This document shows positions 1 to 48,235 of a DNA stretch of 64,000 bases, piece after piece. The notes under the pieces are model-generated. The model was given only the letters and a program-made list of their open reading frames with translations, did no database searches and was not told where the DNA came from. The position numbers were made by a program, and so were the translations under genes. Where the stretch lies: NCBI GenBank assembly GCA_041649495.1, contig JBAZMZ010000003.1:6602-70601 (forward strand). Direction: 5' to 3'. The DNA is from Minisyncoccota bacterium (GTDB lineage Bacteria; Patescibacteriota; Minisyncoccia; Phycocordibacterales; XYD1-FULL-46-19). How positions within the stretch are numbered: position 1 is the first letter of the stretch; the number at the start of each line of letters is the position of its first letter.

Positions 1-332
1 GGTGAGCAATTCGGATCGCCACCTTGGATCATGAAGTCTTTAATGACCCGATGAAAATTGAGGCCGTCATAATAACCGGCTTGAGCTAATTTCACAAAAT
101 TGGCGACGGTGTTGGGGGCGTCGTTGGTATAAGTTTCAAATTGAATTTCGCCGAGCGAAGTGTCTAAAGTGATGATAGGTGACATAATTTTATTTGCTTG
201 TCCCGAGCTTGTCGCGGGGAGTGAATTAGGTTGAGTAATAGGAGGATTTGAACGACTGGCGCCCCAACCGATAATAATAAGAGCAATAACAATCACGACT
301 AAAATGAGACTAATCAAAGTTTTGTTGGACAT
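1..332 (-). CDS. peptidyl-prolyl cis-trans isomerase, cyclophilin type (gene 3' end outside window)
   Basis: Reverse strand translates [13 protein letters not shown](TM)...[47 protein letters not shown], the cyclophilin signature; N-terminal membrane anchor; start codon is the complement of cat at 330-332. Confidence 0.7.
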
Positions 333-382
333 GAAAAAATTGATTAATTGATAATTATAAAAAAGTATAGCAGAATAGGTCA

Positions 383-1387
383 ATGATTGGCAAAAAACCT
401 CCTAATCAGCTAAAGCAGGAGATTGCTTGGCTAAAACGGGAGAAGTATGGCTTGGGAGAAGTCCAACTTCAAGTGAGCCCGAAGTTGGACTTCGCGCAAG
501 CTAGACAATTTAAAAAAGACCTCGAACGGCTCAACGATGGTGAGCCGTTAGATTATGTCATCGGCTGGCGAGATTTTTTGGGTTGTCGGATTGACCTTTC
601 GGCCAAACCGCTCATCCCGCGCGCCGAAACCGAATTTTGGGTCGAGCAGGCGATTAAAGAGCTCGGCGAAATGGGCGAGGCGGTTAGACGAGATCGTTTT
701 TTGTGTAACGAAATGGGATCTCGCAAAACTAAAACCGGAGTACGAAATCATTTCAACTTCGCGAAACCGAACAAAGCTACTTGCGAAGTCGCATTTAGTT
801 CCACAAAAAACGACTTCTCACGACCGCTTCGAGTCCTTGACCTCTTTGCTGGCTCGGGTTGCATCGGTCTCGCGGTGCTCAAACATTGTCCTAATGCTCA
901 CGTGACCTTCGGTGAAAAAGATCCCAAACTTTGCGCGCAAATTAAGAAAAATCTCAAACTGAATCAAATTCCCGCTAGTCGCGCCAAAGTCAGTCAAACC
1001 AACCTATTTAAGCCTTATTTATCGAAGTTCGACTTCGATACCTTACAAAAAGGTGGAAAACTTGATCGGTTTGATGTTGTCTTGGCCAATCCGCCTTATG
1101 TCCCAACCAGAAAGAGTAAAGTGCAAAAATCAGTTAAAGATTGGGAACCAAAAGAAGCACTTTTTGCTGGCAATGATGGTTTGGTTATCATCAAAAAATT
1201 TCTGAAGCAAGCCAGGCTGCATCTTGAGTCAGCCTGCCCTGAGCGTAGTCGAAGGGGTAAAATTTATCTCGAATTTGGCTATGGGCAAAAATTGGCTATC
1301 ACCAAATTACTTAAGCAATTCGGCTATTCAAACTGGCAATTTCACCAAGATCAATTCGGCAAATGGCGCTGGGTAGTGGTAGAATAA
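383..1387 (+). CDS. prmC: release-factor glutamine N5-methyltransferase PrmC/HemK, carrying in-frame repeat inserts
   Basis: [17 protein letters not shown]-binding motif and NPPY catalytic motif ([10 protein letters not shown]); about 45 extra residues sit between the N-domain and the SAM motif and contain palindromic repeats. Confidence 0.8.
458..493. repeat. 36-bp palindromic mini-element GAAGTCCAACTTC-AAGTGAGCCC-GAAGTTGGACTTC, in-frame in prmC
   Basis: Perfect 13-bp inverted arms around a 10-bp spacer; the same architecture recurs at 15604, 18204, 11818 and 41015. Confidence 0.85.
785..817. repeat. 33-bp palindromic mini-element GAAGTCGCATTTAGTTCCACAAAAAACGACTTC, in-frame in prmC
   Basis: Related to GAAGTCGGACTTAGTTACACAAAGTACGACTTC at 9618 and 11751. 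Confidence 0.75.
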
Positions 1388-1395
1388 GTAAAACC

Positions 1396-1998
1396 ATGTT
1401 TAAAAATAAAAATTGGCAAAATCGTTGGATAAACAAAAATCGCTGGCCCGAGAGCCTGTTTGCTAAACGGGTTTGGCTATTTCTCAAAAATAAGAAGGTC
1501 AAAACTCTGCTTGATCTCGGTTGTGGCGGTGGTCGCGATTCGCAGTATTTTTCTCGCCGAGGGCTTAAAGTTGTGGCTCTTGACATCCTTCGGAGTGAGG
1601 ATCAACAAGAAAAATTAAAACAAAATAATATTCCCTTTGTCAAAAGCGACATTAGGAAGCTTAAACTTAAGGGCAATTCTTTTGATGTCATTTATGCCCA
1701 TCTTAGCCTCCACTATTTTAATAATAAAACGACCGACAAAGTTTTTAGTAATTTACACAAAATTCTTAAGCCGGGCGGTTATCTTTTTATAAAATGCAAA
1801 TCGGTTAATGACCCGCTCTATGGCAAAGGCAAGAAAATAGAAGAGAATTTTTACGAAGAAGAACATTTGCGCCACTTCTTTTCTAAAGATTATATGAGAG
1901 AAAAATTAAAGAACTTTAAGATTATCAAGATTACTCAAACCAGCACCTTTAAACGTCCCAGCAAAGCTTCATTTATTGAAGCTTTTGCTCAAAAATAA
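1396..1998 (+). CDS. class I SAM-dependent methyltransferase
   Basis: LLDLGCGGGRDSQYFSRRGLKVVALDI (motif I), FDVIYAHLSLHYF, LKPGGYLFI; ATG at 1396 avoids overlap with prmC. Confidence 0.7.
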   Translation: MFKNKNWQNRWINKNRWPESLFAKRVWLFLKNKKVKTLLDLGCGGGRDSQYFSRRGLKVVALDILRSEDQQEKLKQNNIPFVKSDIRKLKLKGNSFDVIYAHLSLHYFNNKTTDKVFSNLHKILKPGGYLFIKCKSVNDPLYGKGKKIEENFYEEEHLRHFFSKDYMREKLKNFKIIKITQTSTFKRPSKASFIEAFAQK

Positions 1999-1999
1999 A

Positions 2000-3274
2000 A
2001 TGAAAAAAACAGAAAACAATTACGATGTTATCGTTATCGGGGGCGGACCGTCAGGGATGATGGCGGCGGGGGGGGCTGGAGAGCGGGGCAAGAAAGTTTT
2101 GTTGTTGGAGAAAAATGAACGGCTTGGCGACAAGCTCAAGGCAACCGGTGGTGGGCGATGCAATATTACCAACGCCGAGGAGGACAAGGAGGCTCTACTT
2201 CGTCATTATGGTCAGGCCAAAGATTTTCTCCAATCGCCTTTTTCTCAATTTGGTGTCAAAGATACTTTTGCTTTTTTTGAAAACCAAGGACTGCCCTTGG
2301 TGGTTGAGGCACGGAAGCGCGCTTTCCCGGCGACGCAAAAAGCGGGGGATGTTTTTCGAGTTCTTGAGAAATTTATGCGAACTGGCAAAGTTGCCATCAA
2401 AACTGGTGCCCAAGTTGTTAAGTTAATTAAAGATAATGATCAAAAAGTCACTGGGGTGATTCTGGCCAATCACGAGAAGTGTTTTGCCTCCAATTTTATC
2501 TTCGCCACTGGCGGTCTCTCTCATCCCGAACTGGGCGCAACGGGTGATGGCTTCGCGTGGCTTAAGTCGCTGGGCCACACCGTCAAAGAATCTTCGCCCG
2601 ATATTGTGCCCCTCGCGGTTAAAGAAAAATGGGTGAAGGATCTCTCGGGCGTGTCGCTTTCGTTTATGAAAATTACTTTTTTTCTGGACGGCGTGAAAAA
2701 GTTTTCGAAAAAAGGCAAAATTCTTTTTACGCACTTTGGTTTGTCAGGGCCACTTATCTTAAATTCGGCCCGCGAAGTAAAATATTTGATTCAAACTGGA
2801 GGCATAGTCACAGCGCAAATTGACACTTGTCCCGACACCGATATTGGCTCGCTTGAGAAGCAAGTGATTAAAATTTTGGATCAAAACAAAAATAAAAGTT
2901 TGAAAAATGTTCTGCCCGAAATTGCCCCTGACGGTCTGGCTCCCGCTCTGATTAATTTACTAACTAAAAAAACCTGGCCGGTCAGGCTAGATTTAGCTAA
3001 AAAAGTTCACAGCCTCACCAAAGAAGAGCGTCGTGTGATTGTCGATTTGCTCAAAGCTCTCCCCCTCACTATCACTGGTCTCATGGGCTTCGATCGAGCG
3101 GTGGTCTCGGATGGGGGAGTTGATTTGGCTGAAATTGATACCCGCGCCATGCGTTCGCGTCTCCACCCTAATATCTATGTCACGGGCGATCTTCTCAATA
3201 TCTCTCGCCCCTCCGGTGGCTTCTCCCTCCAACTCTGCTGGACGACGGGATATGTCGCGGGGAAGAGTGTGTGA
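2000..3274 (+). CDS. HI0933/BaiN-family NAD(P)/FAD-dependent flavoprotein
   Basis: N-terminal YDVIVIGGGPSGMMAAG dinucleotide-binding motif followed by KATGGGRCNITN, typical of the HI0933-like family; internal ATG at 2000 taken as start. Confidence 0.75.
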   Translation: MKKTENNYDVIVIGGGPSGMMAAGGAGERGKKVLLLEKNERLGDKLKATGGGRCNITNAEEDKEALLRHYGQAKDFLQSPFSQFGVKDTFAFFENQGLPLVVEARKRAFPATQKAGDVFRVLEKFMRTGKVAIKTGAQVVKLIKDNDQKVTGVILANHEKCFASNFIFATGGLSHPELGATGDGFAWLKSLGHTVKESSPDIVPLAVKEKWVKDLSGVSLSFMKITFFLDGVKKFSKKGKILFTHFGLSGPLILNSAREVKYLIQTGGIVTAQIDTCPDTDIGSLEKQVIKILDQNKNKSLKNVLPEIAPDGLAPALINLLTKKTWPVRLDLAKKVHSLTKEERRVIVDLLKALPLTITGLMGFDRAVVSDGGVDLAEIDTRAMRSRLHPNIYVTGDLLNISRPSGGFSLQLCWTTGYVAGKSV

Positions 3275-3286
3275 TAAAATATAATT

Positions 3287-3787
3287 ATGAAAATAGAGAA
3301 TAAATTGCACCTCTGGGGTGAAGTTTTTGATATTTTGTATGAGGATCTCGATGATTTTTCCGTTTTGCCTCGTGAATTATGCACTCAAGTCTATGGAGTT
3401 TGTTTTTGCGACGACAAATTAGTAATTGGTTTCGGCGGGAAGAAAAATGGTTGGGGTTTAATCGGGGGAACGATTGAGCCGACTGAAACCTTCGACGAAA
3501 CGCTTAAACGAGAAATTATCGAAGAGTCAAATATGGAAGTGATAAAGTGGTTGCCGATTGGTTATCAAAAGATTACCGATAAAAATGGACAGGTTAAGTA
3601 TCAGTTAAGAACAGCTTGTCTCGTCCGTAAACTCGGAGAGTTTTTAAGCGATCCTGCTGGCAGTATTAAGGAGGTAAAATTAATTAATCCGGCTACTTAT
3701 AAAGAATATTTTGACTGGGGTGAGATTGGTGACAGAATCATAAATCGCGCCTTAGAATTAAAGATTAAATTAGAAGATGGTATTTAA
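3287..3787 (+). CDS. NUDIX hydrolase
   Basis: Nudix box GGTIEPTETFDETLKREIIEESNMEV (GX5EX7REUXEEXGU). Confidence 0.75.
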   Translation: MKIENKLHLWGEVFDILYEDLDDFSVLPRELCTQVYGVCFCDDKLVIGFGGKKNGWGLIGGTIEPTETFDETLKREIIEESNMEVIKWLPIGYQKITDKNGQVKYQLRTACLVRKLGEFLSDPAGSIKEVKLINPATYKEYFDWGEIGDRIINRALELKIKLEDGI

Positions 3788-11085: not shown

Positions 11086-12423
11086 GTGAGCGATTTTAGT
11101 TTTAAAATTGAGAAGAAGATGAAGACTGGCCTCGGGCGGGCTGGGGTGATTCACACGGCGCATGGCGATATTGAAACGCCAGCTTTTGTGACGGTGGGTA
11201 CCAAGGCGACGGTTAAAGCGCTGACGCCAGAAATGGTTAATAGTTTGGGTGCATCCGTAGTTTTGGCTAATACTTATCATCTCTATTTGGAACCCGGCGA
11301 TGAATTGGTGAAAAAGGCGGGCGGACTTCATCGTTTTATGAATTATGATGGGCCAATGATGACCGACTCGGGCGGGTTTCAAGTTTTTTCGCTTGGGGCA
11401 GCGTTCGGCGAAGGGGGAATTAGTAAGCTGATAAATGGCTTAACATCGGAAGTCGAACTTCGGAACATTAGTAAAATGGGGATAAATGGAGAGGGTGTTG
11501 CTAAACTAGCTAAGATTGATGAGGATGGCGTCACTTTCAAATCAGTGATTGATGGGTCGGAACATCGCTTCACACCCGAGCGCTCGATGCAAATCCAGCA
11601 TAATCTGGGCGCTGATATTATTTTTGCGTTTGATGAATGCACTTCGCCCTTGGCCGATTATGATTATCAGAAAGAGGCGATGGCGCGAACGCATCGTTGG
11701 GCGGAACGGTCGTTAAAAGAGCATCAAAGACTGATTCGCGAGGCAAATTCGAAGTCGGACTTAGTTACACAAAGTACGACTTCGAATCACCCCTCGCTCG
11801 ACGAGTCGGGTGAGCCCGAAGTCCAACTTCTGGGCACCTCGAAGTTGGACTTCAAGCCGACTACTCGACGATCCACTCTCCCGGCTTTGTTCGGTATTGT
11901 TCAGGGGGGTCGGCATCAGGATTTACGCGAAGAAAGTGCACGAATGATTGGGGCGATGGACTTTGCTGGGTTTGGTATTGGCGGGTCGTTTAATAAAGAA
12001 GATATGGGCACGGCCGTTGGTTGGGTCAGTGAAATTTTGCCGGAAGATAAGCCCAGACATTTGCTTGGGATTGGTGAGCCGGCGGATATTATTGAAGGCA
12101 TCAAGAATGGCGCCGATACTTTTGATTGTGTGACACCGACGCGGATGGCGCGCAATGGGACTTTGATGGTTAAAAATGGCAGGTTAAATATTCTTAACGC
12201 TCAATATCGCGAAGATTTGGGTCCAATTGAAAAAGGTTGTGGTTGCTATGTTTGCCAACTTAACTCTGACGGTACCGCCAAATATTCACGCGCTTATCTC
12301 GCCCACCTCTTTCGCGCCAAAGAAATCTTGGCTTCGACTCTGGCTTCGATTCATAACCTCTATTTCTTGATTCATTTGACCAAGCAGATTCGCCAAGACA
12401 TTTTAGCTGAAAAATTTAAATAA
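11086..12423 (+). CDS. tgt: queuine tRNA-ribosyltransferase with a ~45-aa in-frame repeat insert
   Basis: LGRAGVIHTAHGDIETPAFVTVGTKATVKALTPE, LANTYHLYLEPG, FGIVQGG, zinc site CGCYVC; region 11745-11880 (SKSDLVTQSTTSNHPSLDESGEPEVQLLGTSKLDFKPTTRR) is built from two mini-elements. Confidence 0.85.
   Translation: MSDFSFKIEKKMKTGLGRAGVIHTAHGDIETPAFVTVGTKATVKALTPEMVNSLGASVVLANTYHLYLEPGDELVKKAGGLHRFMNYDGPMMTDSGGFQVFSLGAAFGEGGISKLINGLTSEVELRNISKMGINGEGVAKLAKIDEDGVTFKSVIDGSEHRFTPERSMQIQHNLGADIIFAFDECTSPLADYDYQKEAMARTHRWAERSLKEHQRLIREANSKSDLVTQSTTSNHPSLDESGEPEVQLLGTSKLDFKPTTRRSTLPALFGIVQGGRHQDLREESARMIGAMDFAGFGIGGSFNKEDMGTAVGWVSEILPEDKPRHLLGIGEPADIIEGIKNGADTFDCVTPTRMARNGTLMVKNGRLNILNAQYREDLGPIEKGCGCYVCQLNSDGTAKYSRAYLAHLFRAKEILASTLASIHNLYFLIHLTKQIRQDILAEKFK
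11750..11853. repeat. tandem palindromic mini-elements in-frame in tgt
   Basis: CGAAGTCGGACTTAGTTACACAAAGTACGACTTCG at 11750-11784 and GAAGTCCAACTTCTGGGCACCTCGAAGTTGGACTTC at 11818-11853. Confidence 0.85.
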
Positions 12424-15156: not shown

Positions 15157-17817
15157 ATGGAAGAACATAAAATCAAAATTAAGGGGGCGCGAACGCATAA
15201 CCTTAAAAATATTAATTTAGAAATACCGCGCAATAAGCTAGTGGTTTTTACGGGTTTGTCGGGGTCGGGGAAATCAAGCCTGGCGTTTGATACGATTTTT
15301 GCCGAGGGTCAAAGACGCTATGTCGAATCCTTGTCGGCTTACGCGCGACAATTTTTGAAGCAATTGCCTAAGCCTGACGTGGACGAAATTTCGGGTTTGT
15401 CGCCAGCGATTTCGATTGATCAAAAATCTCGTTCGCATAACCCACGCTCAACGGTGGCCACGATTACCGAAATTTATGATTATTTGCGCGTGCTTTATGC
15501 CCGCATTGGTCAACCCCATTGTCCGGTTTGTGGCACGCGGATTGAGAAATTGTCGCACGAGGAAATTGTGAATTTTGTGAAAGCTAAGATGGATGAGGCT
15601 ACCGAAGTTGGACTTCGGGCTCATCGAAGTCCAACTTCTTCCGCCTTAGCCGCCTCTGTTACTTTACTTGCGCCGGTTGTGAGGGGCCGAAAAGGCGAGT
15701 ATTATCAATTGCTTTATGATTTAATCGAAAAAGGTTACTCCGAAGTTTTGATTGATGGCAAAAAGCACAAATTGCGCGAACGAATCATTCTGACTAAAAC
15801 CAAAAAGCACGATATCGATGTGGTAATCGATGAGATACCTTTAGCGGACTTTAATCAAAAGGTCACCAAGAACTCCCCTTTAAAAACTTCTCAAGGGAAG
15901 TCCTTGGCGACGATTGTGGCTTCAGCTAAATCTGACTCGGCTAATGAAAGATTGACTGAAGGGGTTGAGCGAGCGCTTAAAGAAGCCGATGGTTTGGTTA
16001 AAATTGTTATCAATGGCGAGATCTCTTTGTTGTCTTCAAAATTCGCTTGCCCCAACGACGGCTTCTCCTTCCCCGAAATTGAACCACGTCTTTTTTCGTT
16101 CAACTCGCCTTATGGCGCTTGCCCAGAGTGTCACGGTTTGGGCACCAAACATATGTGGGGCAATGAGATTTGCGAGGTTTGCCAAGGCGCGCGTTTGCGA
16201 CCGGAGGCCTTGCAGGTTAAAATCCCTTCGGCCAGCTCAGGGCAAGCTCTTAACATTGTCGAGACAGTTAACCTGTCAATTGGCGAAGCCAAAAAACTTT
16301 TCGAGACACTTAAACTTACGCCGAAAGAAAAAGCGATCTCCGAAGTTTTATTAAAAGAAATTGGCGCGCGATTAAAATTCTTAAATGATGTTGGCTTAGA
16401 TTATGTTGAGTTAAGCCGACGAGCCGACACGCTTAGTGGTGGTGAGGCTCAACGAATTCGTCTTGCTTCGCAACTTGGTTCGCGTTTGGTGGGCACGCTC
16501 TATGTGCTTGATGAACCAACAATTGGTTTGCACGCGCGTGACAATGATAAATTGATTAAGACCTTACTCGAGTTGCGTGATTTGGGCAACTCTATTGTGG
16601 TGGTTGAGCACGACGAGGACACGATTTTCGCTTCGGATTATTTAGTTGATATTGGACCTGGCGCCGGTGTGCATGGTGGGCATATTGTAGTGGCTGACGA
16701 GACTGACAAACTTTTAACCTCCAAGAAAAATGATTATCACTCACTAACCGTCGATTATCTGCGGGGTGATCTTGAAATCCCCGTACCGGAAAATCGGCGG
16801 ATTAAAGATAAGGGGACGATCAAAATTCGCGGTGGCAATATCTTTAATATCAAAAATCTCAATGTTGATATCCCTTTGGGGAGATTGGTGGCAATTACGG
16901 GCGTTTCGGGTTCGGGCAAATCGTCATTGATTTATGAAATTTTACACAAAAATTTACAGGGTCGGCTTGAACGACGTTATCGCACTAACGAGCTCTTTAA
17001 TTGTCACGAGTTTAGCGGGAGCGAATATTTAAGCCGAGTGGTAATGATTGACCAGTCACCAATTGGTCGCACCCCACGTTCGAATCCGGCCACTTATACT
17101 GGGGCCTTTACCTTTATTCGCGAATTATTGGCGGAGACGGCGCTGGCCCGAGCTCGGGGTTGGAAGGCGTCCCGCTTCTCCTTCAACGTGGCGGGGGGTC
17201 GGTGTGAGGCTTGTCAGGGCAATGGCGAAGTCGCGGTCGAAATGCATTTTTTGCCAACCATCTATGTCCCCTGCGATATTTGTCACGGAACAAGGTATGA
17301 AAAAGATACGCTTGAGGTGCAGTACAAGAAAAAAAATATCAGTCAGATTTTGCACCTGACGGTGGAAGAGGCGCTCGAATTTTTTAATGACATTCCCGCC
17401 ATTCATGATCGATTAAAAACGCTTAATGAAGTGGGGCTTGGCTATTTAGAATTAGGTCAATCGGCTACCGATTTGTCTGGGGGTGAAGCGCAACGGGTTA
17501 AGATTTCATCCGAACTTTATCGTCCTCATACTGAACGGACCTTGTATATATTAGATGAGCCGACTATTGGTCTCCATTACGAAGATGTTAAAAAGTTAAA
17601 TGAGATTTTGCAAAAATTAGTGGAGAAGGGGAATACGGTGGTGGTCATTGAGCATAATATGGAGGTAATTAAATGTGCCGATTATATTATTGATTTGGGG
17701 CCCGAAGGTGGGCTCGGTGGTGGAAATTTGGTGGCCAAGGGCACACCCGAAGAAGTGGCTTACGCGCCCGGGTCTCACACCGCCAAATATTTGAAGAGAG
17801 CCTTGCGGAAAAAATAA
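15157..17817 (+). CDS. uvrA: excinuclease ABC subunit A, with in-frame repeat inserts
   Basis: Two ABC ATPase modules ([14 protein letters not shown]; [11 protein letters not shown]; LSGGEAQR twice) and Zn-finger Cys clusters; inserts at 15604-15638 and 16227-16247. Confidence 0.9.
15604..15638. repeat. palindromic mini-element GAAGTTGGACTTC-GGGCTCATC-GAAGTCCAACTTC, in-frame in uvrA
   Basis: Same arms as the prmC copy at 458-493, in reversed order. Confidence 0.85.
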
Positions 17818-17821
17818 AAAA

Positions 17822-19207
17822 ATGAAGTCTCAAGACTTAAAAAAATACAAATTACCTGATTTGCCAGGGGTCTATTTTTTTCAACGGGATCGAGAAATTC
17901 TTTATGTTGGCAAAGCCACTTCACTCAAAGATCGCGTGAAGAGTTATTTTGCGGGTGATTTGGGAGAGACGAGAGGCCCCAAGATTACCCAGATGCTTAC
18001 TCTCGCCAATAAAATAAAGTGGCAAGAGACCGATTCTGTTCTCGAGGCTTTATTGTTGGAGACTGAATTAATTAAAAAGCATCAACCAGTTTATAATACC
18101 CGAGAAAAAGACGACAAGAGTTATTGGTTTGTTATTATCACCGATGAAGATTTTCCTCGGGTTCTCCCGATCCGTGGTCGTGAGCTAGAAGGGCGAGCTT
18201 TGGGAAGTCGTACTTCAAGTGAGCCCGAAGTCCGACTTCAAAAAACGAAGCCCGAATTTGTTTTTGGGCCATTTCCTTATGGTGGGGAATTGAAAGAGGC
18301 TCTTAAAATAATTAGGAAAATTTTTCCGTATCGAGACAAATGCTTGCCTTGCGTCGCTTCAGCGAAGCAGGGTGTGCCTTGTCGGTTGAGAGGTGAGTCC
18401 TCAAGTGAGCCCGAGGTCTCTCCTCGTAACCGATGCCGACCTTGCTTCAACCGGCAAATTGGTCTTTGCCCTGGTGTTTGCACGGGTGAAATTTCAAAAA
18501 TTAATTATCGAAAAATTGTGCGAAATATTGAGTTGCTTTTTAGGGGTAAGAAAAAAGAGATAGTAAAAAAATTAGAGCAAGAGATGAAGTCGCTGGCGAA
18601 AAAACGAGAATTTGAGAAAGCGAGTGAGGTGAGAGATCAAATTTTCGCCCTGAATCATATTCGAGATGTGTCTTTATTAAAAAAGAGAAGTTCGATTGGG
18701 CGAGATCGTCCAATAAGCCCTTACTCAATCCGTCTTGAGGCCTATGACATCGCTCATTTGGCGGGGACAAATACGACGGGGGCAATGGTGGTGTGGCAAA
18801 ATGGCGAATTAGATAAGCATGAATATAAAAAATTTAAATTAAGGGGGGTCAAAGCTGGCTCGCCTGACGATCTGGCTAATCTTCACGAGATTTTGGAACG
18901 ACGCTTTAATCACCCTGAGTGGCCTCAACCAGATATTATTGTGGTGGATGGCAATCAGGTGCAGGTTGAGGTGGCAAAAAAAGTAATTAAGAGTCAGGTG
19001 CGAAAAATGACTTCGGGCTCACCTGAAGTCGCGTTTCGCACCCCACAAGTCATTGCCGTGACTAAAGATGATAAACATCGAGCCTCAAGATTAATTGGCG
19101 ATCCGGCCATCATCCGCGATTATCGTCAGGCCATTATTGAGGTTAATGCTGAGGCTCATCGTTTTGCACTGGCCTACCATAGAAAATTACGCCGGCGATT
19201 GGTATAA
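17822..19207 (+). CDS. uvrC: excinuclease ABC subunit C, short form (GIY-YIG, UVR and RNase H-like domains; no C-terminal HhH), with two in-frame repeat inserts
   Basis: GIY-YIG N-terminus (LPGVYFFQRDREILYVGKATSLKDRVKSY), UVR motif, endoV/RNaseH-like region (EAYDIAHLAGTNTTGAMVV..DIIVVDGNQVQV); only 461 aa; inserts at 18204-18239 and 18389-18427. Confidence 0.8.
   Translation: MKSQDLKKYKLPDLPGVYFFQRDREILYVGKATSLKDRVKSYFAGDLGETRGPKITQMLTLANKIKWQETDSVLEALLLETELIKKHQPVYNTREKDDKSYWFVIITDEDFPRVLPIRGRELEGRALGSRTSSEPEVRLQKTKPEFVFGPFPYGGELKEALKIIRKIFPYRDKCLPCVASAKQGVPCRLRGESSSEPEVSPRNRCRPCFNRQIGLCPGVCTGEISKINYRKIVRNIELLFRGKKKEIVKKLEQEMKSLAKKREFEKASEVRDQIFALNHIRDVSLLKKRSSIGRDRPISPYSIRLEAYDIAHLAGTNTTGAMVVWQNGELDKHEYKKFKLRGVKAGSPDDLANLHEILERRFNHPEWPQPDIIVVDGNQVQVEVAKKVIKSQVRKMTSGSPEVAFRTPQVIAVTKDDKHRASRLIGDPAIIRDYRQAIIEVNAEAHRFALAYHRKLRRRLV
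18204..18239. repeat. palindromic mini-element with AAGTGAGCCC spacer, in-frame in uvrC
   Basis: GAAGTCGTACTTC-AAGTGAGCCC-GAAGTCCGACTTC. Confidence 0.8.
18389..18427. repeat. variant mini-element GAGGTGAGTCCTC-AAGTGAGCCC-GAGGTCTCTCCTCG, in-frame in uvrC
   Basis: Identical 39-bp copy in leuS at 41068-41106. Confidence 0.8.
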
Positions 19208-20707: not shown

Positions 20708-21694
20708 ATGATTAAGGTGGGAATTTTACGTGGCGGGGTAGGGCACGAATATGAAGTGTCGCTCAAAACGGGCGCCAATGTGCTCAAAAACTTGCCGAGC
20801 GACAAATATCAGCCGGTCGACATGCTCTTATCGCGGGATGGCACTTGGCATGTCAACGGTTTGCCAGTCTCACCAGAACGCGCCGTGCGCAGTGTTGATG
20901 TCATTTTTAACGCTCTTCATGGCGAATTTGGCGAGGATGGTCAAGTTCAACAGATTTTGGACCTTTTACAGACCCCTTATACTGGTTCAGGCACGGTGGC
21001 CTCGGCTTTGGGGATGGATAAACCGCGGGCTAAGGAAATTTTCAAAAAAGCCGGATTAAAAGTGCCAAATGGGGTGGTTTTAAAGCGAGGAGATCAGACC
21101 CTTCGACAAGACTCAGGGCAAGCAGAAACCGAAGCAGTGGCGTACGATGCCTTTCAGAAAATTTCACCGCCGTGGATTATCAAGCCAGCCGGCAGTGGCT
21201 CCTCGGTTGGTCTTTATTTAGCACGCACTTTTCCTGAATTGGTTCAGGCGATTGAAAGTTGTTTCAAATTTAGCGATGCCGTTTTAGTTGAAGAATATAT
21301 TCGCGGTAAAGAGGCGACTTGCGGGGTAGTTGATAGCCTGCGCGGACAAGATTATTATTCACTTTTGCCCATCGAAATCGTCACCCCCGATAACAAAAAT
21401 CTTTTTGATTATGAGGCTAAATATACTGGCATTACGTCCGAAATTTGTCCCGGTCGTTTTACTAAAGACGAAAAAAAGGAACTCGAGAGTCTCTCGGCCC
21501 AAATTCACCGAGCTCTTGGCCTGCGTCATTACTCTCGCTCCGACTTTATCTTATCGCCAAGGGGCATTTATGTGCTCGAAGTCAATACTTTGCCCGGTTT
21601 GACCGAAGAATCGCTCATCCCTAAATCTCTGCGGGCTAGCGGTATCCCTTACGGCCAATTTTTGGACCATATTGTCACTTTGGCCTTAAATTAA
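20708..21694 (+). CDS. ddl: D-alanine--D-alanine ligase
   Basis: KVGILRGGVGHEYEVSLKTGANV N-terminal domain and ATP-grasp C-terminus (EEYIRGKEATCGV, EVNTLPGLT). Confidence 0.85.
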   Translation: MIKVGILRGGVGHEYEVSLKTGANVLKNLPSDKYQPVDMLLSRDGTWHVNGLPVSPERAVRSVDVIFNALHGEFGEDGQVQQILDLLQTPYTGSGTVASALGMDKPRAKEIFKKAGLKVPNGVVLKRGDQTLRQDSGQAETEAVAYDAFQKISPPWIIKPAGSGSSVGLYLARTFPELVQAIESCFKFSDAVLVEEYIRGKEATCGVVDSLRGQDYYSLLPIEIVTPDNKNLFDYEAKYTGITSEICPGRFTKDEKKELESLSAQIHRALGLRHYSRSDFILSPRGIYVLEVNTLPGLTEESLIPKSLRASGIPYGQFLDHIVTLALN

Positions 21695-38472: not shown

Positions 38473-41400
38473 ATGGGAAAAAAATCTAAGGGGAGCAAAT
38501 ACGATCATTTAAAAATAGAGTCTAAATGGCAACGTGAGTGGAGTCGTTCCAAAACTTATCAAACTACCGAAACGACCGGTTCGACAAGCTCACGGCAAGA
38601 ATCTAAACCCAAAGCTTATGTTTTAGATATGTTCCCGTATCCGTCGGGGGAGGGTTTGCATGTCGGCCACCCCAAGGGTTATATCGCCACGGATGTTTAT
38701 TCGCGCTTTAAACGAATGAGTGGTTTTAATGTCTTGCACCCCATGGGTTGGGATGCTTTTGGTTTACCGGCCGAGAATTATGCGATTAAAAATAAAATTA
38801 ATCCGGCCGTGGCGGTGAAGAAGAATATCAAACATTTTAAATCACAGATGGAAAAGATTGGGCTCGATTATGATTGGTCTCGCGAAATCAACACCACCGA
38901 CCCCAAATATTACAAATGGACCCAATGGATTTTCTTACAATTGTTCAAGCGGGGATTGGCTTACCAATCGAATGAGCCGATTAATTGGTGCCCGTCTTGT
39001 CAAACTGGTTTAGCCAATGAAGATTTGGAGACCCGTTCGACAAGCTCAGGGCAAGCGGCCGTCTGTGAGCGTTGTGGTTCGCTCGTGATCAAAAAACCGA
39101 TCCGCCAATGGGTGCTCAAAATTACTAATTACGCTGAACGGTTATTGACTGATTTGGACGGCTTAAATTGGCCCGAATCAATCAAAGAATCACAAAGAAA
39201 TTGGATTGGCCGAAGCGAAGGGGCTGAAATTGATTTTCCCCTTCAAACTGGACCCCTTAAGTTTGTCATCCTGCACGGATGGAAAAGTAATAGCCGGCGT
39301 TGTTTTATTCCCTGGCTCAAGCGCGAGCTCGAAGAACGAGGCCACGAAGTAGTCGCCTTGGATCTTCCTCATCCCGTCGTGCCCAATATTGCAGAGCAAG
39401 TTGATTACGTTTTATCTAAAGTGACGTTTGACGCCAACACCATAATTATCGCTCATTCACTGGGCTCAATCGCGGCTTATCGAATTCTCGAAAAATTAAA
39501 AACGCCCATCAAGAAATTAGTCATTGTCGCTGGCTTAATTGAGCCAAAATTTCGAGACAAGGCCCGACCCGAAGCCAAATATCTCTTAAGTTGGAAATTT
39601 AATTTGGCTAAAATTAAAAAGAATGCTGGCCAAATTGTCATTCTTGAAGATCAAAATGACAATATTATCCCCAAAGGCGAATCACGGGTGATCCAACAAG
39701 CCTTAGGGGGCGAGGTTTACCAACTCGAAGCCCAAACGGCTCACTTCTGCGGGTCCGTTGAGCCGTTAGTCCTAGGGCATAGCCTAGACCGAGTCAAGAT
39801 CTTCACCACCCGCGCCGACACCCTTTTTGGTGCCACTTATTTAGTCCTCGCGCCAGAACATAAATTGATTTCTCAATTAAAAAAAGAAATTAGCAATTGG
39901 GTTGAGGTCACAAAATATATTAAACAAGCAGAAAAAAGAACCGAGATCGAGAGATCGACTGAAGGCCGAGAAAAAACAGGGGTCAAACTCGAAGGCGTGA
40001 GAGCGATTAATCCGATCAATAATGAAGAAATCCCAATTTTTATTGCCGATTATGTCTTACCTGGTTATGGCACGGGCGCAATTATGGCCGTACCGGCCCA
40101 CGACGAACGCGACCATCAATTTGCCAAGAAATTTGATTTGCCAATTGTGCCGGTAATTATCAAGGATTTGCCGACCACTCTTGATCATGTCGCCGAGGCT
40201 TATACTGGTTCAGGAAAAATGGTTAACTCCGGCCGATGGAATGGCCTTGATAATGAGCAAGTGGTCGATCCAATGATTAAATTTGTCCGCGGGAAAAAAG
40301 TGATTCGCTACAAATTACGCGATTGGGTTTTTTCACGCCAACGTTATTGGGGCGAACCGATTCCAATTGTCCACTGTGCTAAGTGTGGTCCAATGCCTGT
40401 GCCCGAAAAAGATTTGCCGGTCAAATTGCCGGCAGTTAAAAGTTACGCCCCCACCGGCACCGGCGAATCGCCTCTGGCCAACATTAAAAGCTGGGTCAAT
40501 ACCAAATGTCCGGCTTGTGGCGGGCCAGCCCAACGCGAGACCAATACCATGCCCCAATGGGCGGGTTCGTCTTGGTATTATTTGCGCTATATCGACCCTA
40601 AGAACGACAAGGCTCTCGCTGATCCTAAGAAATTAAATTATTGGTCACCAGTCGATATGTATGTGGGAGGCACCGAGCATGCGACTCGTCACTTAATCTA
40701 CGCGCGATTTTGGCATAAGTTTTTGCAGGATATCGGCATCGTCAAAAATTCCGAGCCATTTGCCCAACTTAAAAATCAAGGTTTAATTTCTGGTTCTGAT
40801 GGGAGGAAGATGAGCAAGCGTTGGGGTAATGTCATTAACCCCGACGATATTATTAAGAGTCATGGCGCCGATACCTTGCGGGTTTATGAGATGTTTATGG
40901 GTCCGTTTGAACAAGGAGTGTCGTGGAGCACCGACAACCTAATGGGCGCGCGCCGTTTTGTGGAGAAAATTTGGCGGTTGAACGGGAAAGTCGTTCCCGA
41001 GGCTAAGGTTGTGCGAAGTACGACTTCGGGCTCACTTGAAGTCGGACTTCTCACGACTGAATCAGCTTCCGAGGTGAGTCCTCAAGTGAGCCCGAGGTCT
41101 CTCCTCGGAAACAATGACTTCCTTTTGCACAAAACCATCAAACAAGTGACCGACGATATCAATCGCTTCAATTTTAACACCGCGATTTCGGCCTTAATGA
41201 TTCTCGCCAACGATTGGGACAAACTCAAGCAAATTTCAATCACTGATTTCAAAATCTTGCTTAAATTATTGGCCCCGTTGGCCCCACATTTGAGCGAAGA
41301 ATTATGGCATAATTTGGGCGAGAAAAAATCAATTCATCTCTCAACCTGGCCCGTGGCCGATCCACAAAAATTGATAACGAAAGAGGTCAAAATCGTGGTC

Positions 41401-41568
41401 CAAATTAACGGCAAGGTCCGCGCAACCCTCGATTTGCCCGTCGGCCAGATTGAGGAAGAAGTCATTAATCTCGCCTTAGCCAACCCGATGGTACAAAAAT
41501 GGTTACCCGCTGGTCAATACAAAAAAACTATATTTATCAAGGATAAATTACTCAACTTTGTGTTATAA
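38473..41568 (+). CDS. leuS: leucine--tRNA ligase with an inserted YdeN/RBBP9-type alpha/beta-hydrolase domain and several in-frame repeat inserts
   Basis: HVGHPKGY (HIGH), KMSKRWGN (KMSKS), editing-domain and anticodon-binding regions; 1031 aa; hydrolase domain at 39241-39780; repeats at 38580, 39036 and 41015-41106. Confidence 0.9.
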   Translation: MGKKSKGSKYDHLKIESKWQREWSRSKTYQTTETTGSTSSRQESKPKAYVLDMFPYPSGEGLHVGHPKGYIATDVYSRFKRMSGFNVLHPMGWDAFGLPAENYAIKNKINPAVAVKKNIKHFKSQMEKIGLDYDWSREINTTDPKYYKWTQWIFLQLFKRGLAYQSNEPINWCPSCQTGLANEDLETRSTSSGQAAVCERCGSLVIKKPIRQWVLKITNYAERLLTDLDGLNWPESIKESQRNWIGRSEGAEIDFPLQTGPLKFVILHGWKSNSRRCFIPWLKRELEERGHEVVALDLPHPVVPNIAEQVDYVLSKVTFDANTIIIAHSLGSIAAYRILEKLKTPIKKLVIVAGLIEPKFRDKARPEAKYLLSWKFNLAKIKKNAGQIVILEDQNDNIIPKGESRVIQQALGGEVYQLEAQTAHFCGSVEPLVLGHSLDRVKIFTTRADTLFGATYLVLAPEHKLISQLKKEISNWVEVTKYIKQAEKRTEIERSTEGREKTGVKLEGVRAINPINNEEIPIFIADYVLPGYGTGAIMAVPAHDERDHQFAKKFDLPIVPVIIKDLPTTLDHVAEAYTGSGKMVNSGRWNGLDNEQVVDPMIKFVRGKKVIRYKLRDWVFSRQRYWGEPIPIVHCAKCGPMPVPEKDLPVKLPAVKSYAPTGTGESPLANIKSWVNTKCPACGGPAQRETNTMPQWAGSSWYYLRYIDPKNDKALADPKKLNYWSPVDMYVGGTEHATRHLIYARFWHKFLQDIGIVKNSEPFAQLKNQGLISGSDGRKMSKRWGNVINPDDIIKSHGADTLRVYEMFMGPFEQGVSWSTDNLMGARRFVEKIWRLNGKVVPEAKVVRSTTSGSLEVGLLTTESASEVSPQVSPRSLLGNNDFLLHKTIKQVTDDINRFNFNTAISALMILANDWDKLKQISITDFKILLKLLAPLAPHLSEELWHNLGEKKSIHLSTWPVADPQKLITKEVKIVVQINGKVRATLDLPVGQIEEEVINLALANPMVQKWLPAGQYKKTIFIKDKLLNFVL
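39241..39780 (+). other. inserted serine-hydrolase (YdeN/RBBP9, PF06821-like) domain within leuS
   Basis: LKFVILHGWKSNSRRCFIPWLKRELEERGHEVVALDLPHPVVP...IIIAHSLGSIAAYRILEK...VIVAGLIEP...IVILEDQNDNIIP...VYQLEAQTAHF parallels B. subtilis YdeN (IIHGY..HWFPWLKK..LVAHSLG..VSGF..VIASKDDQIVP..LYEV..GHF), including the GxSxG nucleophile and Asp/His positions. Confidence 0.7.
41015..41106. repeat. two mini-elements in-frame near the leuS C-terminal region
   Basis: GAAGTACGACTTC-GGGCTCACTT-GAAGTCGGACTTC (spacer is the reverse complement of AAGTGAGCCC) then GAGGTGAGTCCTCAAGTGAGCCCGAGGTCTCTCCTCGG, identical to uvrC 18389. Confidence 0.85.
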
Positions 41569-43931: not shown

Positions 43932-44816
43932 ATGTTTTTAAAACACTGGAAAATTATTCTCTTAGTGACAGTTTTTGTTTTGTTTTTTGTCATCACCATC
44001 AAAACGGTCTTTCCGCCAGCTAATTTTCCGACCAACCCGTTTTATCATGTCGATCGAGGCAAATCAGTGGCCCAAGTCGCAGGGGAACTCAAGGCAAAAA
44101 ATTTTATTCAATCACCCCTAGCTTTTAAAATTTTTGTTCGCTTGCTCGGCGGTGAAAAACGGATGCAAGTCGGCACCTATTTCTTCAAACAGCCCATCTC
44201 GTCAATTAATATCGCTCTAAAATTAACCCATCATTTCTTGGGCGAAAAGCCAATCACGGTCACTATTTACGAAGGAATGACCAATGCGAAGATTGCTAAA
44301 TTATTAGCCCAAAAACTACCCCCAATTAAAGCTGATGATTTTATTGCTCAAGCCAAAAATCTTCAGGGTCGGCTTTTCCCCGACACTTATTTCTTTTCAC
44401 CCTACGATACGGTTGAGGACATTATTTATGAATTAAATCAAAATTTTGACGAGCAAATCGCTAAATTAAAGATTGACGTGGTTTTATCTGGCCAAACTCT
44501 TAATCAAATTTTAGTCATGGCTTCCATTATCGAAGGCGAGGCCAATAAAGATGTTGACCGTCATCTCATTTCCGGCATTCTCTGGAAGCGTTTGTCGATT
44601 GAAATGCCCTTGCAAGTTGACGTGGCCAAAGAAACTTACAAACAGCAAGGTCTGCCAGATGCGCCGATTAATAACCCGGGGTTAGAGGCGATTGAAGCGG
44701 CCATTTATCCCGAGACTTCGGATTATCTTTATTATCTTACTGGTCGCGATGGCCAAATGTATTACGCCGAAGATTTCGCTGGACACAAAAAGAATCGGCG
44801 TCTTTACCTAGATTAG
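43932..44816 (+). CDS. mltG: endolytic murein transglycosylase MltG (YceG family)
   Basis: N-terminal TM then YceG signature (LQVDVAKETYKQQGLPDAPINNPGLEAIEAAIYPETSDYLYYLTGRDGQMYYA). Confidence 0.8.
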   Translation: MFLKHWKIILLVTVFVLFFVITIKTVFPPANFPTNPFYHVDRGKSVAQVAGELKAKNFIQSPLAFKIFVRLLGGEKRMQVGTYFFKQPISSINIALKLTHHFLGEKPITVTIYEGMTNAKIAKLLAQKLPPIKADDFIAQAKNLQGRLFPDTYFFSPYDTVEDIIYELNQNFDEQIAKLKIDVVLSGQTLNQILVMASIIEGEANKDVDRHLISGILWKRLSIEMPLQVDVAKETYKQQGLPDAPINNPGLEAIEAAIYPETSDYLYYLTGRDGQMYYAEDFAGHKKNRRLYLD

Positions 44817-44831
44817 AATTTACGATATAAC

Positions 44832-46067
44832 TTGAGAGTGACTAGGAAGAAAAAACGAGTTTTCGTCGGTATGAGTGGGGGAGTTGATAGCTCGGTTTCG
44901 GCCGCTTTATTAAAAAGGGCCGGTTTTGAGGTAATCGGGGTATTTATTCGAGTCTGGGAGCCCAGTGGTTTTGTTTGTCGCTGGCGTGAAGAGAGGCGAG
45001 AAGCCAGACGAGCCGCCGCTCATTTAGATATTCCACTCTCAACTCTCGATTTAAGTCGTGAATATAAGAAAAGGGTGGTTGATTATTTCATTGCTGAATA
45101 TAAGTCTGGCCGAACCCCCAACCCCGACGTGATGTGCAATAAACATATTAAGTTTGGCGTATTTTATGATTGGGCCATGAAAAATGGCGCGGACTTTGTC
45201 GCCACGGGGCACTACGCACAAATTTGCAACAAATTTGTGCCAAAATTTCAAACCATAAATTCTAAACTCGAAACAAGTATTAAATTCCAAAGTTTAAAAT
45301 TTAAAAAATTAAATATTGTTTCGGATTTAGAAATTAATATTTCGAATTTGCCAAGTTTTTGCCAGAGTAAAGACTTGGCCAAGGATCAAACTTATTTCTT
45401 GTGGAATCTTAAAGCCGAGCAACTTGCCAAAATTCTTTTTCCCGTGGGCCAATACACCAAACCGCAAGTTCGCGCTTTAGCCAAGAAATTTGGCTTGCCC
45501 AATGCTGAGAAAAAAGACAGTCAGGGTTTATGCTTTATCGGTAAAATTGATTTTAAAGATTTTCTCAAGCGGGAAATTTATGGAAAAAGGGGGACTTGCC
45601 CCGAGCGGAGTCGAGGGGGTGTTTTAAACGAGCAGGGAAAAGTAATCGGCCAACATGACGGCGCGATGTTTTTCACTTTAGGCGAACGCCACGGTTTCGA
45701 AATTTTCTCGCAGACATCAGACTCCAAACCCTATTACATCGTCGCTAAAGATATTAAGAAAAACACGCTCACTGTTTCTCCTAATTTTAATCAAGGGCAG
45801 GCCTTGACTTCTGAAGTCAAAATTGAAAAAACTAATTGGATCAACCAGTCAAGCGACCTGGAGGTTAAACCTCTGGGCGCCTCGAGGTTTAACCTCCAAG
45901 CCAGAGTCCGTTACCGTCAACCGCTTCAAGCTTGCCACTTGACGCAGGTCGACAATAAAAAAAGCACCGCTACCATAAGCTTCTCTAAACCACAACTCGC
46001 CGTCTCGGGCCAATCACTGGTCCTCTACGACCAAAATATCTGTCTCGGTGGGGGAATTATTGTTTAA
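44832..46067 (+). CDS. mnmA: tRNA 2-thiouridylase MnmA, with a low-complexity insert and a CPERSRGG repeat
   Basis: PP-loop VGMSGGVDSSVSA, KDQTYFL, catalytic Cys context; ~50-aa AT-rich insert (~45230-45380) before KDQTYFL; repeat at 45597-45619. Confidence 0.85.
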   Translation: MRVTRKKKRVFVGMSGGVDSSVSAALLKRAGFEVIGVFIRVWEPSGFVCRWREERREARRAAAHLDIPLSTLDLSREYKKRVVDYFIAEYKSGRTPNPDVMCNKHIKFGVFYDWAMKNGADFVATGHYAQICNKFVPKFQTINSKLETSIKFQSLKFKKLNIVSDLEINISNLPSFCQSKDLAKDQTYFLWNLKAEQLAKILFPVGQYTKPQVRALAKKFGLPNAEKKDSQGLCFIGKIDFKDFLKREIYGKRGTCPERSRGGVLNEQGKVIGQHDGAMFFTLGERHGFEIFSQTSDSKPYYIVAKDIKKNTLTVSPNFNQGQALTSEVKIEKTNWINQSSDLEVKPLGASRFNLQARVRYRQPLQACHLTQVDNKKSTATISFSKPQLAVSGQSLVLYDQNICLGGGIIV

Positions 46068-46099
46068 AAACAAGTATTTTTCGATATCCAATCTCGTAA

Positions 46100-46425
46100 A
46101 CTGTTTTATTTTTGAAAGTTTTTTGCTAAACTTAATTAGGAGGTGATGTGAAAATGTCAGGCTTAGGTCCAATACCTACCGGGCAACCGGTGGGGGACGA
46201 ACCAGGTCCAGTGCCCGAGACCGACGACTGGCCAGATACTTTGGAGGTCCTAGGCTGCCACCCAGATGGACCCCTGCCAGAGCCAGGGAGAGAACCTGTC
46301 TTCCTGGAACATGATGGGTGTTTCGCCGACCATCAACAACATAAGTGATCCATTGATGGTCGACACCGGGGCTTTCCTGTTGGAAGGCCCCTTAGTGCTT
46401 ATCGTAAAATATGATAGAATAGTTC
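46100..46425. other. GC-rich leader/intergenic region upstream of alaS (possible regulatory RNA; unidentified)
   Basis: ~60% GC block between mnmA and alaS; overlapping ORFs on both strands are Pro/Gly-rich translations of GC-rich DNA. Confidence 0.25.
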
Positions 46426-46429
46426 TACA

Positions 46430-48235
46430 ATGACTTCTGAAGAAATCCGGCAAAAGTTTTTAAAGTTTTTTGAAGAAAGGGGACATCAGGTGATCCCCTC
46501 GGCCTCGCTCGTGCCCAGCGAATATGGCGACAATGGCACCCTCTTCACCACCGCTGGGATGCAACCATTAATTCCCTATTTATTGGGTAAACCACACCCG
46601 GCTGGCCAGAGAATTGTTGATATTCAAAAATGTGTGCGTACCGGCGATATTGACGAGGTGGGCGATAATCGGCACCTCACCTTTTTTGAAATGATGGGCA
46701 ATTGGAGTTTGGGCGATTATTTTAAAAAAGAATCGATCCCGTGGAGCTTCGATTTTTTAACTAATAAAGACTACGGTCTCGGCCTTGATCCGGCTCGTTT
46801 TTATGTGACGGTTTTCGCGGGCACCCCTTCGACAAGCTCAGGGCAAGCTAGTATTCCTCGCGACGAAGAATCAATCAAAATCTGGCAAGAAGTTTTTGCT
46901 AAATATGGCTTATCTAATGATGTCGCGGATAAAGATGGAGTAATAAAAAAAGACACAAGAATTATCCCACTTGGAGTTGACGACAATTTTTGGATTGCCG
47001 GTGCCACTGGGCCGTGTGGCGGTGATACGGAAATTTTTTATGATACCAAACCCAACGATGGCCCCCTTGATGGCAAATTTAGCGAGTTAGTTGATTCTTT
47101 TCGTTTGATTGAGGTCTGGAATAATGTCTTTATGGAGTTTAACAAGACTCCAGATGGTAAATACGAACCATTAGCGACAAAAAATGTCGACACCGGGATG
47201 GGTTTGGAGCGAATTACCGCGGTAATCAACAAATCAAATATTTTTGAAACCGACTTGTTTACCCCAATTATTAGCGAAATCCGGCAACAATCAATCAAGC
47301 TCAGCGAAAAAGGCATACGGATTGTCGCTGACCACGTGCGAACCGCGGTTTTTATGATTGCCGATGACGTCACTCCGTCTAATACCGACCGAGGCTATGT
47401 TCTCCGTCGAGTAATTCGTCGCGCCGTGCGTTATGCTGACCAAATGCAAGCCGATACTGATATTATGCGCCAAGTCGCCGAAGTGGTGATCGAAAAATAT
47501 AAGACAGCTTATCCCGCCCTCGACCAAAATCGCGAAAAAATTTTTGCTGAATTAAGTAAGGAGGAAGAAAAATTTAGAAAAACACTCGCCAACGGTCTCA
47601 AAGAATTTGAAAAAGGTCACGACCCATTTGATCTTTATCAAACCTACGGTTTCCCAATTGAATTGACCGAGGAATTAGCTCAAGAAAAAGGAATTAAAAT
47701 TGATCGCTCTACTTTTGACGAAAAAATGAAGCAACATCAAGAAATTTCCAAAGCTGGTGCGGACCAAAAATTCAAAGGCGGATTAGCAAGCACGGGCGAG
47801 ATGGAAACAAAATATCACACAGCTACGCACTTACTTTTAGCCTCCTTGCGACAAGTTTTGGGACAAGACATCACGCAAAAAGGGAGTAATATAACAACAG
47901 AGCGCTTGCGTTTTGACTTTAATTGGCCCGAAAAACTTTCGCCCGAACAAATTAAAGCGGTTGAAGATTTGGTTAATCAAAAAATTACCGAGAAAATTCC
48001 CGTCGAAAGGCTCGAATTACCCAAAGACGAGGCCAAAAAACTGGTCACCGTTCTTTCTTTTGACGAATCAAAATATGGCGACACGGTTAAGGTTTATAAA
48101 ATTGGTTCTTTCAGCACCGAATTCTGCGGTGGCCCCCATGTCACCAACACTGGCGATCTTGCTTCGACATTTAAAATTTTGAAAGAAGAAGCCATCTCCG
48201 CCGGCGTGAGACGAATTAAAGCAGTGTTGGAATAA
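46430..48235 (+). CDS. alaS: alanine--tRNA ligase, short form (catalytic plus editing domains, no C-Ala domain), with an SSGQA repeat insert
   Basis: Class II AlaRS N-terminus (FTTAGMQPLIPYLLG, NWSLGDYFK), editing-domain HxxxH (HTATHLL) and CGGPHV; 601 aa versus ~870 typical. Confidence 0.85.
   Translation: MTSEEIRQKFLKFFEERGHQVIPSASLVPSEYGDNGTLFTTAGMQPLIPYLLGKPHPAGQRIVDIQKCVRTGDIDEVGDNRHLTFFEMMGNWSLGDYFKKESIPWSFDFLTNKDYGLGLDPARFYVTVFAGTPSTSSGQASIPRDEESIKIWQEVFAKYGLSNDVADKDGVIKKDTRIIPLGVDDNFWIAGATGPCGGDTEIFYDTKPNDGPLDGKFSELVDSFRLIEVWNNVFMEFNKTPDGKYEPLATKNVDTGMGLERITAVINKSNIFETDLFTPIISEIRQQSIKLSEKGIRIVADHVRTAVFMIADDVTPSNTDRGYVLRRVIRRAVRYADQMQADTDIMRQVAEVVIEKYKTAYPALDQNREKIFAELSKEEEKFRKTLANGLKEFEKGHDPFDLYQTYGFPIELTEELAQEKGIKIDRSTFDEKMKQHQEISKAGADQKFKGGLASTGEMETKYHTATHLLLASLRQVLGQDITQKGSNITTERLRFDFNWPEKLSPEQIKAVEDLVNQKITEKIPVERLELPKDEAKKLVTVLSFDESKYGDTVKVYKIGSFSTEFCGGPHVTNTGDLASTFKILKEEAISAGVRRIKAVLE
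48183..48234. repeat. 52-bp direct repeat, copy 1 (native alaS 3' end)
   Basis: AAGAAGAAGCCATCTCCGCCGGCGTGAGACGAATTAAAGCAGTGTTGGAATAA; near-identical copy at 49283-49334 with 4 mismatches. Confidence 0.85.

Follow-up and report, generated by a model that had tools for sequence, protein, structure and literature searches.

In-frame micro-insertions in essential genes of a candidate phyla radiation bacterium belong to a hairpin repeat present in many bacterial phyla

The stretch analyzed here, called the window throughout, comprises 64,000 nucleotides of a Minisyncoccota bacterium (contig JBAZMZ010000003.1, positions 6,602 to 70,601). Within it, the genes for a PPIase, prmC, uvrA, ddl, leuS, mnmA and alaS carry a repeat of about 26 bases in their coding regions, whose family consensus on either strand is GCTTGCC-CTGAGCTTGTCGAAGG-GGT with the 17-nt core CCTGAGCYTGTCGAAGG. 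Eight copies are present in total, two of them in leuS. All eight are intragenic and in frame, and shuffled sequences yield none, so that the repeated units described in an earlier note on this DNA are real. The copies are located as follows.

196..219, plus strand: degenerate copy GCTTGTCCCGAGCTTGTCGCGGGG in the minus-strand PPIase gene, in the linker that connects the N-terminal membrane anchor to the cyclophilin domain; reads ATSSGQA.
1233..1257, plus strand: copy in the prmC/hemK-like methyltransferase gene, CCTGAGC...TCGAAGG strand as sense; reads ACPERSRRG; +7 aa relative to E. coli HemK.
16222..16247, minus strand: uvrA copy; reads PSASSGQA; +6 aa relative to solved UvrA structures.
21098..21123, minus strand: ddl copy; reads TLRQDSGQA owing to an internal indel of 1 nt; +24 nt relative to relative L125.
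38575..38600, minus strand: leuS site 1 copy in an N-terminal variable loop; reads GSTSSRQE; +24 nt relative to all five sequenced relatives and +7 aa relative to Thermus thermophilus LeuRS.
39031..39058, minus strand: leuS site 2 copy in the CxxC...CxxC zinc-knuckle loop; TRSTSSGQAAV replaces DGK, net +24 nt.
45592..45619, plus strand: mnmA copy, CCTGAGC...TCGAAGG strand as sense; reads TCPERSRGG; +24 nt relative to L121, L122 and L124.
46823..46848, minus strand: alaS copy; reads TPSTSSGQA; +21 nt relative to L121, L122, L124 and L125.

A 21-nt unit 1, TTCGACAAGCTCAGGGCAAGC, and a 23-nt unit 2, TGCCCCGAGCGGAGTCGAGGGGG, were each searched in the window and compared with shuffled sequence. Unit 1 matched without mismatches at 39036 and 46828 and with two mismatches at 16227 and 38580 (0 matches in 100 dinucleotide-preserving shuffles), while unit 2 matched exactly at 45597 and with three mismatches at 1235 (0 expected by the shuffles). 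The PPIase copy (196-216) has four mismatches and was seen by looser matching only. Looser searches also revealed the copy at 21098-21123, whose host was assigned to ddl by Pfam (D-Ala-D-Ala ligase). Accordingly, every copy on the earlier list was recovered, and the list had missed the one in ddl. A further weak match at 2121-2146 was rejected: this stretch is the LGxKLxxxGGGRCN motif native to HI0933-like flavoproteins, and it aligns without gaps to PDB homologues.

The two units had been regarded as separate families. Unit 1 reads GCTTGCCCTGAGCTTGTCGAAGGGG on the opposite strand and unit 2 in prmC reads CCTGCCCTGAGCGTAGTCGAAGGGG; the units are thus reverse complements of each other, and what had been taken for two families is a single element found in both orientations. 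Five of the six reading frames of this element are open. The TTCGACAAGCTCAGGG strand can be translated into STSSGQA, FDKLRAS and RQAQGK, and the CCTGAGC...TCGAAGG strand into CPELVEG and LALSLSKG, its third frame containing a TGA. All six window copies with the TTCGACAAGCTCAGGG strand as host sense use the STSSGQA frame (p about 0.004), and both copies in the opposite orientation use the CPExxxG frame.

Alignment with orthologues displayed the units as six to eight extra residues. Compared with solved structures, LeuRS is extended by 7 aa at site 1 and by 8 aa at site 2, where the insert sits between the CxxC pairs of the zinc knuckle, while UvrA and PrmC have gained 6 and 7 aa, respectively. 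Among 5.8 billion proteins the closest LeuRS relative was 73% identical, and the LeuRS homologues assign the organism to Candidatus Paceibacterota (Parcubacteria), a lineage of the candidate phyla radiation (CPR). Codon alignments were calculated with five contigs of such relatives (L121 to L125), four of which are syntenic beyond leuS. At leuS site 1, mnmA and ddl (+24 nt each) and at alaS (+21 nt) the window alone was filled. For leuS site 2, the insert was present in the window, L121, L122 and L123, and L124 and L125 had the empty site. Clean empty sites thus exist in syntenic Paceibacterota relatives at five positions, with a net difference of 21 or 24 nt. The copies are insertions with presence/absence turnover between relatives, as had been suggested by the description of the units as in-frame micro-insertions, and they are not conserved motifs of the host protein families. 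The mnmA site of L125 (mnmA at 16420-17526; window about 45590-45620) contains a different small hairpin insert, GGGAGGCTCAACCTCCCC, which reads GRLNLPL. With two unrelated inserts at the same position in the window and in L125, this loop evidently tolerates inserts.

The repeat is not confined to this genome; its core belongs to a hairpin repeat found across bacterial phyla and phage contigs. An exact scan for the 16-mer CTGAGCYTGTCGAAGG in one genome per GTDB species (596 Gb) gave at least 120 loci. Among the matches listed, the core occurred in Chloroflexota, Alpha-, Beta- and Gammaproteobacteria, Bacteroidota, Actinomycetota, Cyanobacteria, Nitrospirota, Planctomycetota, Acidobacteriota and several CPR lineages, amounting to more than ten phyla overall. 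Core counts alone prove nothing, because about 555 chance occurrences of a 16-mer with one two-fold position are expected in 596 Gb. The flanks are informative. Among the matches listed, 132 of 134 distinct copies had a C directly before the core, and across phyla certain left arms came up again, among them CCGTTCGCC and CCGTTCGTC. The first flanking pair was complementary in 125 of the 134 copies compared with 88.6 in shuffles, a value that was not attained in any of 2,000 shuffles; by type, the pairs were CG (68), TA (33), TG (13) and GC (10). Over six flank pairs, 504 of 804 cells were paired in register, compared with 289-367 when the partner was slid. Flank pairing and covariation demonstrate that the element is a hairpin whose loop and stem base are conserved and whose outer stem covaries. 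Conservation across phyla applies to CCT-GAGCYTGTCGA-AGG, i.e. a loop of 11 nt together with the stem base, while the rest of the stem varies and stays complementary.

For full-length copies in other genomes the folding energy is about -23 kcal/mol. Intergenic inverted doublets of the element are found in Methylumidiphilus, Comamonas and Sphingobium, and in the latter two it is plentiful on replicons of cultured isolates. The plasmid database PLSDB contained the element in 71 records, with up to 22 places in some Sphingobium megaplasmids, and 39 of the 40 best places listed had no annotated coding sequence beneath them in the PLSDB gene table, which is itself incomplete. Viral contigs of IMG/VR carry the element with the same flank signature, the core being preceded by C in 111 of 130 copies. 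At one locus of a Dehalococcoidia metagenome-assembled genome (L020, 5140-5420), the left half TCCTGAGCTTGTCG is repeated in tandem three to six times ahead of a complete unit, in a pattern resembling replication slippage.

The window copies retain just 4-5 bp of the stem. Their folding was no better than that of shuffled sequences (z from -1.7 to +2.1), which rules out a stable hairpin in these copies. Cores inside long open reading frames (ORFs) were also present in the CPR lineages Staskawiczbacteria, Saccharibacteria, Peribacteraceae, Peregrinibacteria and Shapirobacteria. An independent metagenome scan with the window-type 22-mer TTGCCCTGAGCYTGTCGAAGGG yielded 123 copies, 59 of them in an unambiguous long open frame. 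These 59 copies reside in 57 distinct host proteins, and frames were counted once per host (n = 57). The ST(S/G)SGQ frame was used in 31 hosts (p about 1e-8 under the assumption that all five open frames are used equally), followed by RQAQG (14), LSLSKG (6), FDKLRA (5) and CPELVEG (1). In 50 of the 57 hosts the TTCGACAAGCTCAGGG strand was sense (p about 4e-6 against a 3:2 expectation). The dominant translation is the most hydrophilic and flexible one, as a filter for peptide tolerance predicts. Loss of the stem, together with the bias in orientation and frame, is what one would see with a selfish repeat that persists only at places where its translation does no harm.

The interpretation that we favor, with a probability of roughly 0.72, is that a non-autonomous hairpin repeat resembling the repetitive extragenic palindromes (REPs) has seeded truncated units into coding DNA, where they were kept only if in frame, free of stop codons and benign. 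The repeat in the window is the Paceibacterota form of a hairpin element of many bacterial phyla. In ordinary bacteria this element behaves like a REP or a REP doublet (REPIN), being intergenic, multi-copy and often arranged in inverted doublets. In the CPR lineage, nearly stemless truncated units have been added to loops of essential proteins with a net gain of 21 or 24 nt, and their persistence would require that the frame is kept, the TGA-containing frame is avoided and the peptide is tolerated. Such a filter would explain the dominance of the Ser/Thr/Gly-rich ST(S/G)SGQA. The inserted peptides would then be passengers without a function of their own. The data show that the copies form one family and are insertions, that they come and go between relatives, that the element occurs across phyla with a covarying stem, and that frame and orientation are biased. 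New copies would, by inference, arise by active spread of the hairpin-forming DNA, brought about either by an enzyme that acts in trans on single-stranded DNA, like those mobilizing REPs, or by template switching at the replication fork. A more far-reaching version, which we regard as doubtful, is that the 17-nt core serves as recognition site of a horizontally travelling mobilizing activity that seeds the micro-element across phyla and phages and prefers certain sites in CPR bacteria, the LeuRS zinc-knuckle loop having then been hit several times over. If this were true, the element would represent phylum-spanning, protein-decorating selfish DNA, analogous to the Rickettsia palindromic elements (RPEs) and much broader in distribution.

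Several observations weigh against spread by a REP-like element. Two of them come from leuS site 2. This insert is present in the LeuRS of the query and of P0002, P0030, P0031 and P0060, and these five lineages are scattered on a neighbor-joining tree of 71 LeuRS sequences, each with empty-site neighbors. The junction residues (TR...xV) are identical in all five lineages, which is awkward for simple random insertion. To explain shared junctions in scattered lineages, the same site must have gained the insert repeatedly, the insert must have been lost precisely many times, or recombination must have occurred. Moreover, the site 2 element is identical at 25 of 27 nt among the window, L121 and L122, and the one internal difference lies at the known T/C polymorphic position of the core. 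Third-codon positions in the element match in 7/7, 7/8 and 7/8 cases compared with about 55% in the flanks, in what is a small sample. Together with the shuffle tests, this comparison upholds the postulated conservation at the nucleotide level, and it suggests a nucleotide-level constraint, homogenization or an arrival more recent than the surrounding gene. Target-site duplications, which had been put forward as possible flanks of the units, and a common target sequence were looked for at eight junctions, and neither was seen; exact junctions are not definable, because the relatives are only about 70% identical in protein sequence. An all-against-all BLAST of 2,324 ORFs found no transposase, no REP-associated tyrosine transposase (RAYT) and no other recurrent gene within 2.5 kb of the 120 copies listed, the only hits being generic families at five loci or fewer each; the search addressed these neighborhoods, and a RAYT could lie farther away. 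The census, finally, describes the 64-kb window and not the genome-wide copy number or the intergenic share. A GIY-YIG nuclease as a candidate partner was discarded after a motif scan of the 120 loci listed and of the window found none.

Some of these observations would be accommodated if the core were a functional RNA or DNA hairpin-loop signal for a widely conserved factor acting in mRNA stability, translation pausing or DNA processing, with selection keeping the core and the peptide being incidental. The 11-nt loop is kept across phyla while the stems covary, the third-codon positions at leuS site 2 are more conserved than the flanks, and the same leuS loop is filled in five scattered lineages. 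From its sequence, the loop could form a tandem G-A/A-G mismatch and a G-C pair closing a 5-nt loop. The coding copies do not behave like such a signal, however. The window copies are nearly stemless and fold no better than shuffles, and copies occur in both orientations relative to the host, the dominant one placing pyrimidine-pyrimidine mismatches rather than G-A in the mRNA. Hosts and positions are unrelated (57 distinct hosts for 59 copies), most relatives lack the copies and have intact genes, and no Rfam family matches. Furthermore, the strong reading-frame bias points to selection on the peptide and not on the RNA. We therefore consider a functional signal unlikely.

Slightly less probable still is that the copies are not mobile at all and that new sites derive from short-patch recombination or gene conversion between existing copies and chance look-alikes, or from lateral exchange of gene segments among CPR bacteria. 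This would suit the leuS site 2 junctions, which are identical in five scattered lineages while the elements differ at the T/C core position, as well as the missing target-site duplications. It would also suit the mnmA insert, which is flanked on both sides by an AGGGGG run that is single in the empty site of L124. The other junctions, in contrast, lack microhomology, conversion alone cannot account for how a 24-nt segment first came to dissimilar sites, and the intergenic doublets and arrays in other phyla are left unexplained. That the units are merely low-complexity linkers, convergent family motifs or assembly artefacts might be supposed from their Ser/Thr/Gly-rich, linker-like peptides. 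This is highly improbable and is refuted by the alignments, in which orthologues lack the copies, and by the identity on both strands, where the same DNA encodes unrelated peptides. Nucleotide identity over 21-26 nt has an expectation of 0 by chance, and the element is present in complete plasmids of cultured isolates and in many independent assemblies.

Spread of a REP-like repeat invites comparison with known systems. RPEs, which Ogata and colleagues are said to have reported in 2000, are palindromic repeats located in frame within genes. By analogy, the behavior of our element is closest to that of RPEs and of the intragenic REPs, for which uvrA and tRNA synthetases are given among the decorated genes by Di Nocera et al. 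2013 (PMC3733652). The systems share short palindrome-derived repeats lying in frame in housekeeping genes of a reduced genome, the addition of a short peptide with retention of the host protein and the overlap in uvrA and tRNA synthetase hosts. They differ in size, the net unit here being 21-24 nt compared with 20-30 aa for most intragenic REP dimers and more than 100 nt for RPE-1. Unlike them, our element carries neither a GTAG tag nor CGTC/CCA tags, its conserved part is the 11-nt loop instead of the stem, and its core is common to many phyla and not restricted to one genus. Given the different size and tags, membership in the RPEs is unlikely. The CGTC-tagged REPs (among them dRS3, RPE-4 and RPE-6) carry CGTC as an unpaired head, a stem of 8-9 bp with AT at its start, a loop of 4-5 nt and a CCA tail, and no dedicated transposase is known for this class (PMC3733652). 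In contrast, our element has an 11-nt loop and no CCA tail, and a CGTC-like string occurs only in some variants and inside the stem. Neither its DNA nor the five peptides appear in the text and supplements of PMC3733652.

With REPs and REPINs the element shares its form in Proteobacteria, where it is an intergenic, multi-copy, imperfect hairpin that is often arranged as an inverted doublet. The covariation in 134 copies and the folds of full-length copies establish it as a short (20-40 nt) imperfect palindrome in many copies. GTAG was found at neither end of the window copies nor in the flank consensus of the 134 copies. The extragenic location of REPs applies to the PLSDB places listed and not to the window (8/8 intragenic). 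Whereas a REP family is normally confined to one species or genus, this core extends over phyla and phage contigs. MITEs, the miniature inverted-repeat transposable elements, span 50-500 bp and have terminal inverted repeats and target-site duplications. Our element resembles them as a non-autonomous repeat that contributes coding sequence to host genes; its units, however, measure about 26 nt, and flanking direct repeats were not found. Non-autonomous repeats able to give host genes coding sequence are also represented by the Coxiella QMITEs, which are MITEs located in genes (PMC5896051).

At gathering scores, Rfam matched only two tRNAs in the window. At a permissive E-value, the eight loci with full-length copies gave nothing but sub-threshold AaHKsRNA41 (26-31 bits compared with a threshold of 97). 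The matches to this family (RF02901, Aggregatibacter small RNA 41) lie over or beside element copies at L063 3267-3474 and L073 3014-3203, and the family itself may be built on a related repeat. Literature searches for DNA 12- to 14-mers, the RNA and the five peptides returned only primer or chance matches. The motif is absent from the RepRanger and Minerva papers, and a search of the literature on CPR, Patescibacteria, REP, REPIN and RAYT gave Di Nocera et al. 2013 as the only relevant paper. In-frame inserts of REP type are established as such; what appears to be undescribed is this particular family, together with its cross-phylum conservation and the load that it places on essential CPR genes.

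The window contains further repeats. A second, longer palindromic family, GAAGTCCAACTTCAAGTGAGCCCGAAGTTGGACTTC, and its relatives lie inside genes, including prmC, uvrA and leuS, at the following positions; the UvrA part is an 18-aa segment absent from solved UvrA structures.

458-493: second palindromic family.
11818-11853: second palindromic family.
15603-15623: second palindromic family.
18204-18239: second palindromic family.
18390-18425: second palindromic family.
41015-41050: second palindromic family.
41071-41106: second palindromic family.

A 41-nt repeat, TATCGAAGTCGAACTTCGGAAGTATGGTAAAAAGTGGATAA, occurs at 57988-58028 and 58770-58810 with 100% identity and a distance of 782 nt, with diverged copies at 1020, 11445 and 63487. 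It consists of a small hairpin and a TATGGTAAAA stretch that resembles a promoter -10 region. The last 58 nt of alaS (48182-48239) are repeated 1.1 kb downstream (49282-49339) with 91% identity, both duplicates ending in ...EEAISAGVRRIKA(V/I)LE-stop, and the DNA between them is low in GC and contains a P-loop ORF fragment. This arrangement looks like a small element that integrated at the 3' end of alaS and restored the end of the gene. In LeuRS (window 38473-41568), about 180 residues preceding the editing domain (residues ~259-439) are without counterpart in the T. thermophilus enzyme. LeuRS proteins of Paceibacterota relatives gave alpha/beta-hydrolase Pfam matches, some of them also NUDIX, and the extra segment would represent an enzyme domain built into a tRNA synthetase by fusion.

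On the reading preferred here, namely the seeding of truncated REP-like units into coding DNA, the finding adds the candidate phyla radiation to Rickettsia and a few Proteobacteria as groups in which selfish DNA lies within protein-coding genes. The bearers are essential enzymes, i.e. LeuRS, AlaRS, UvrA, MnmA, Ddl and PrmC, and their inserts are tied to a hairpin repeat with a cross-phylum loop that is undescribed as judged from Rfam and the searched literature. The units lengthen CPR proteins and create spurious shared peptides (STSSGQA, RQAQGK, FDKLRAS, PELVEG and LSLSKG), which may mislead homology searches and alignments. The frame bias, in turn, constitutes a natural experiment on which insertions of seven to eight residues proteins tolerate.

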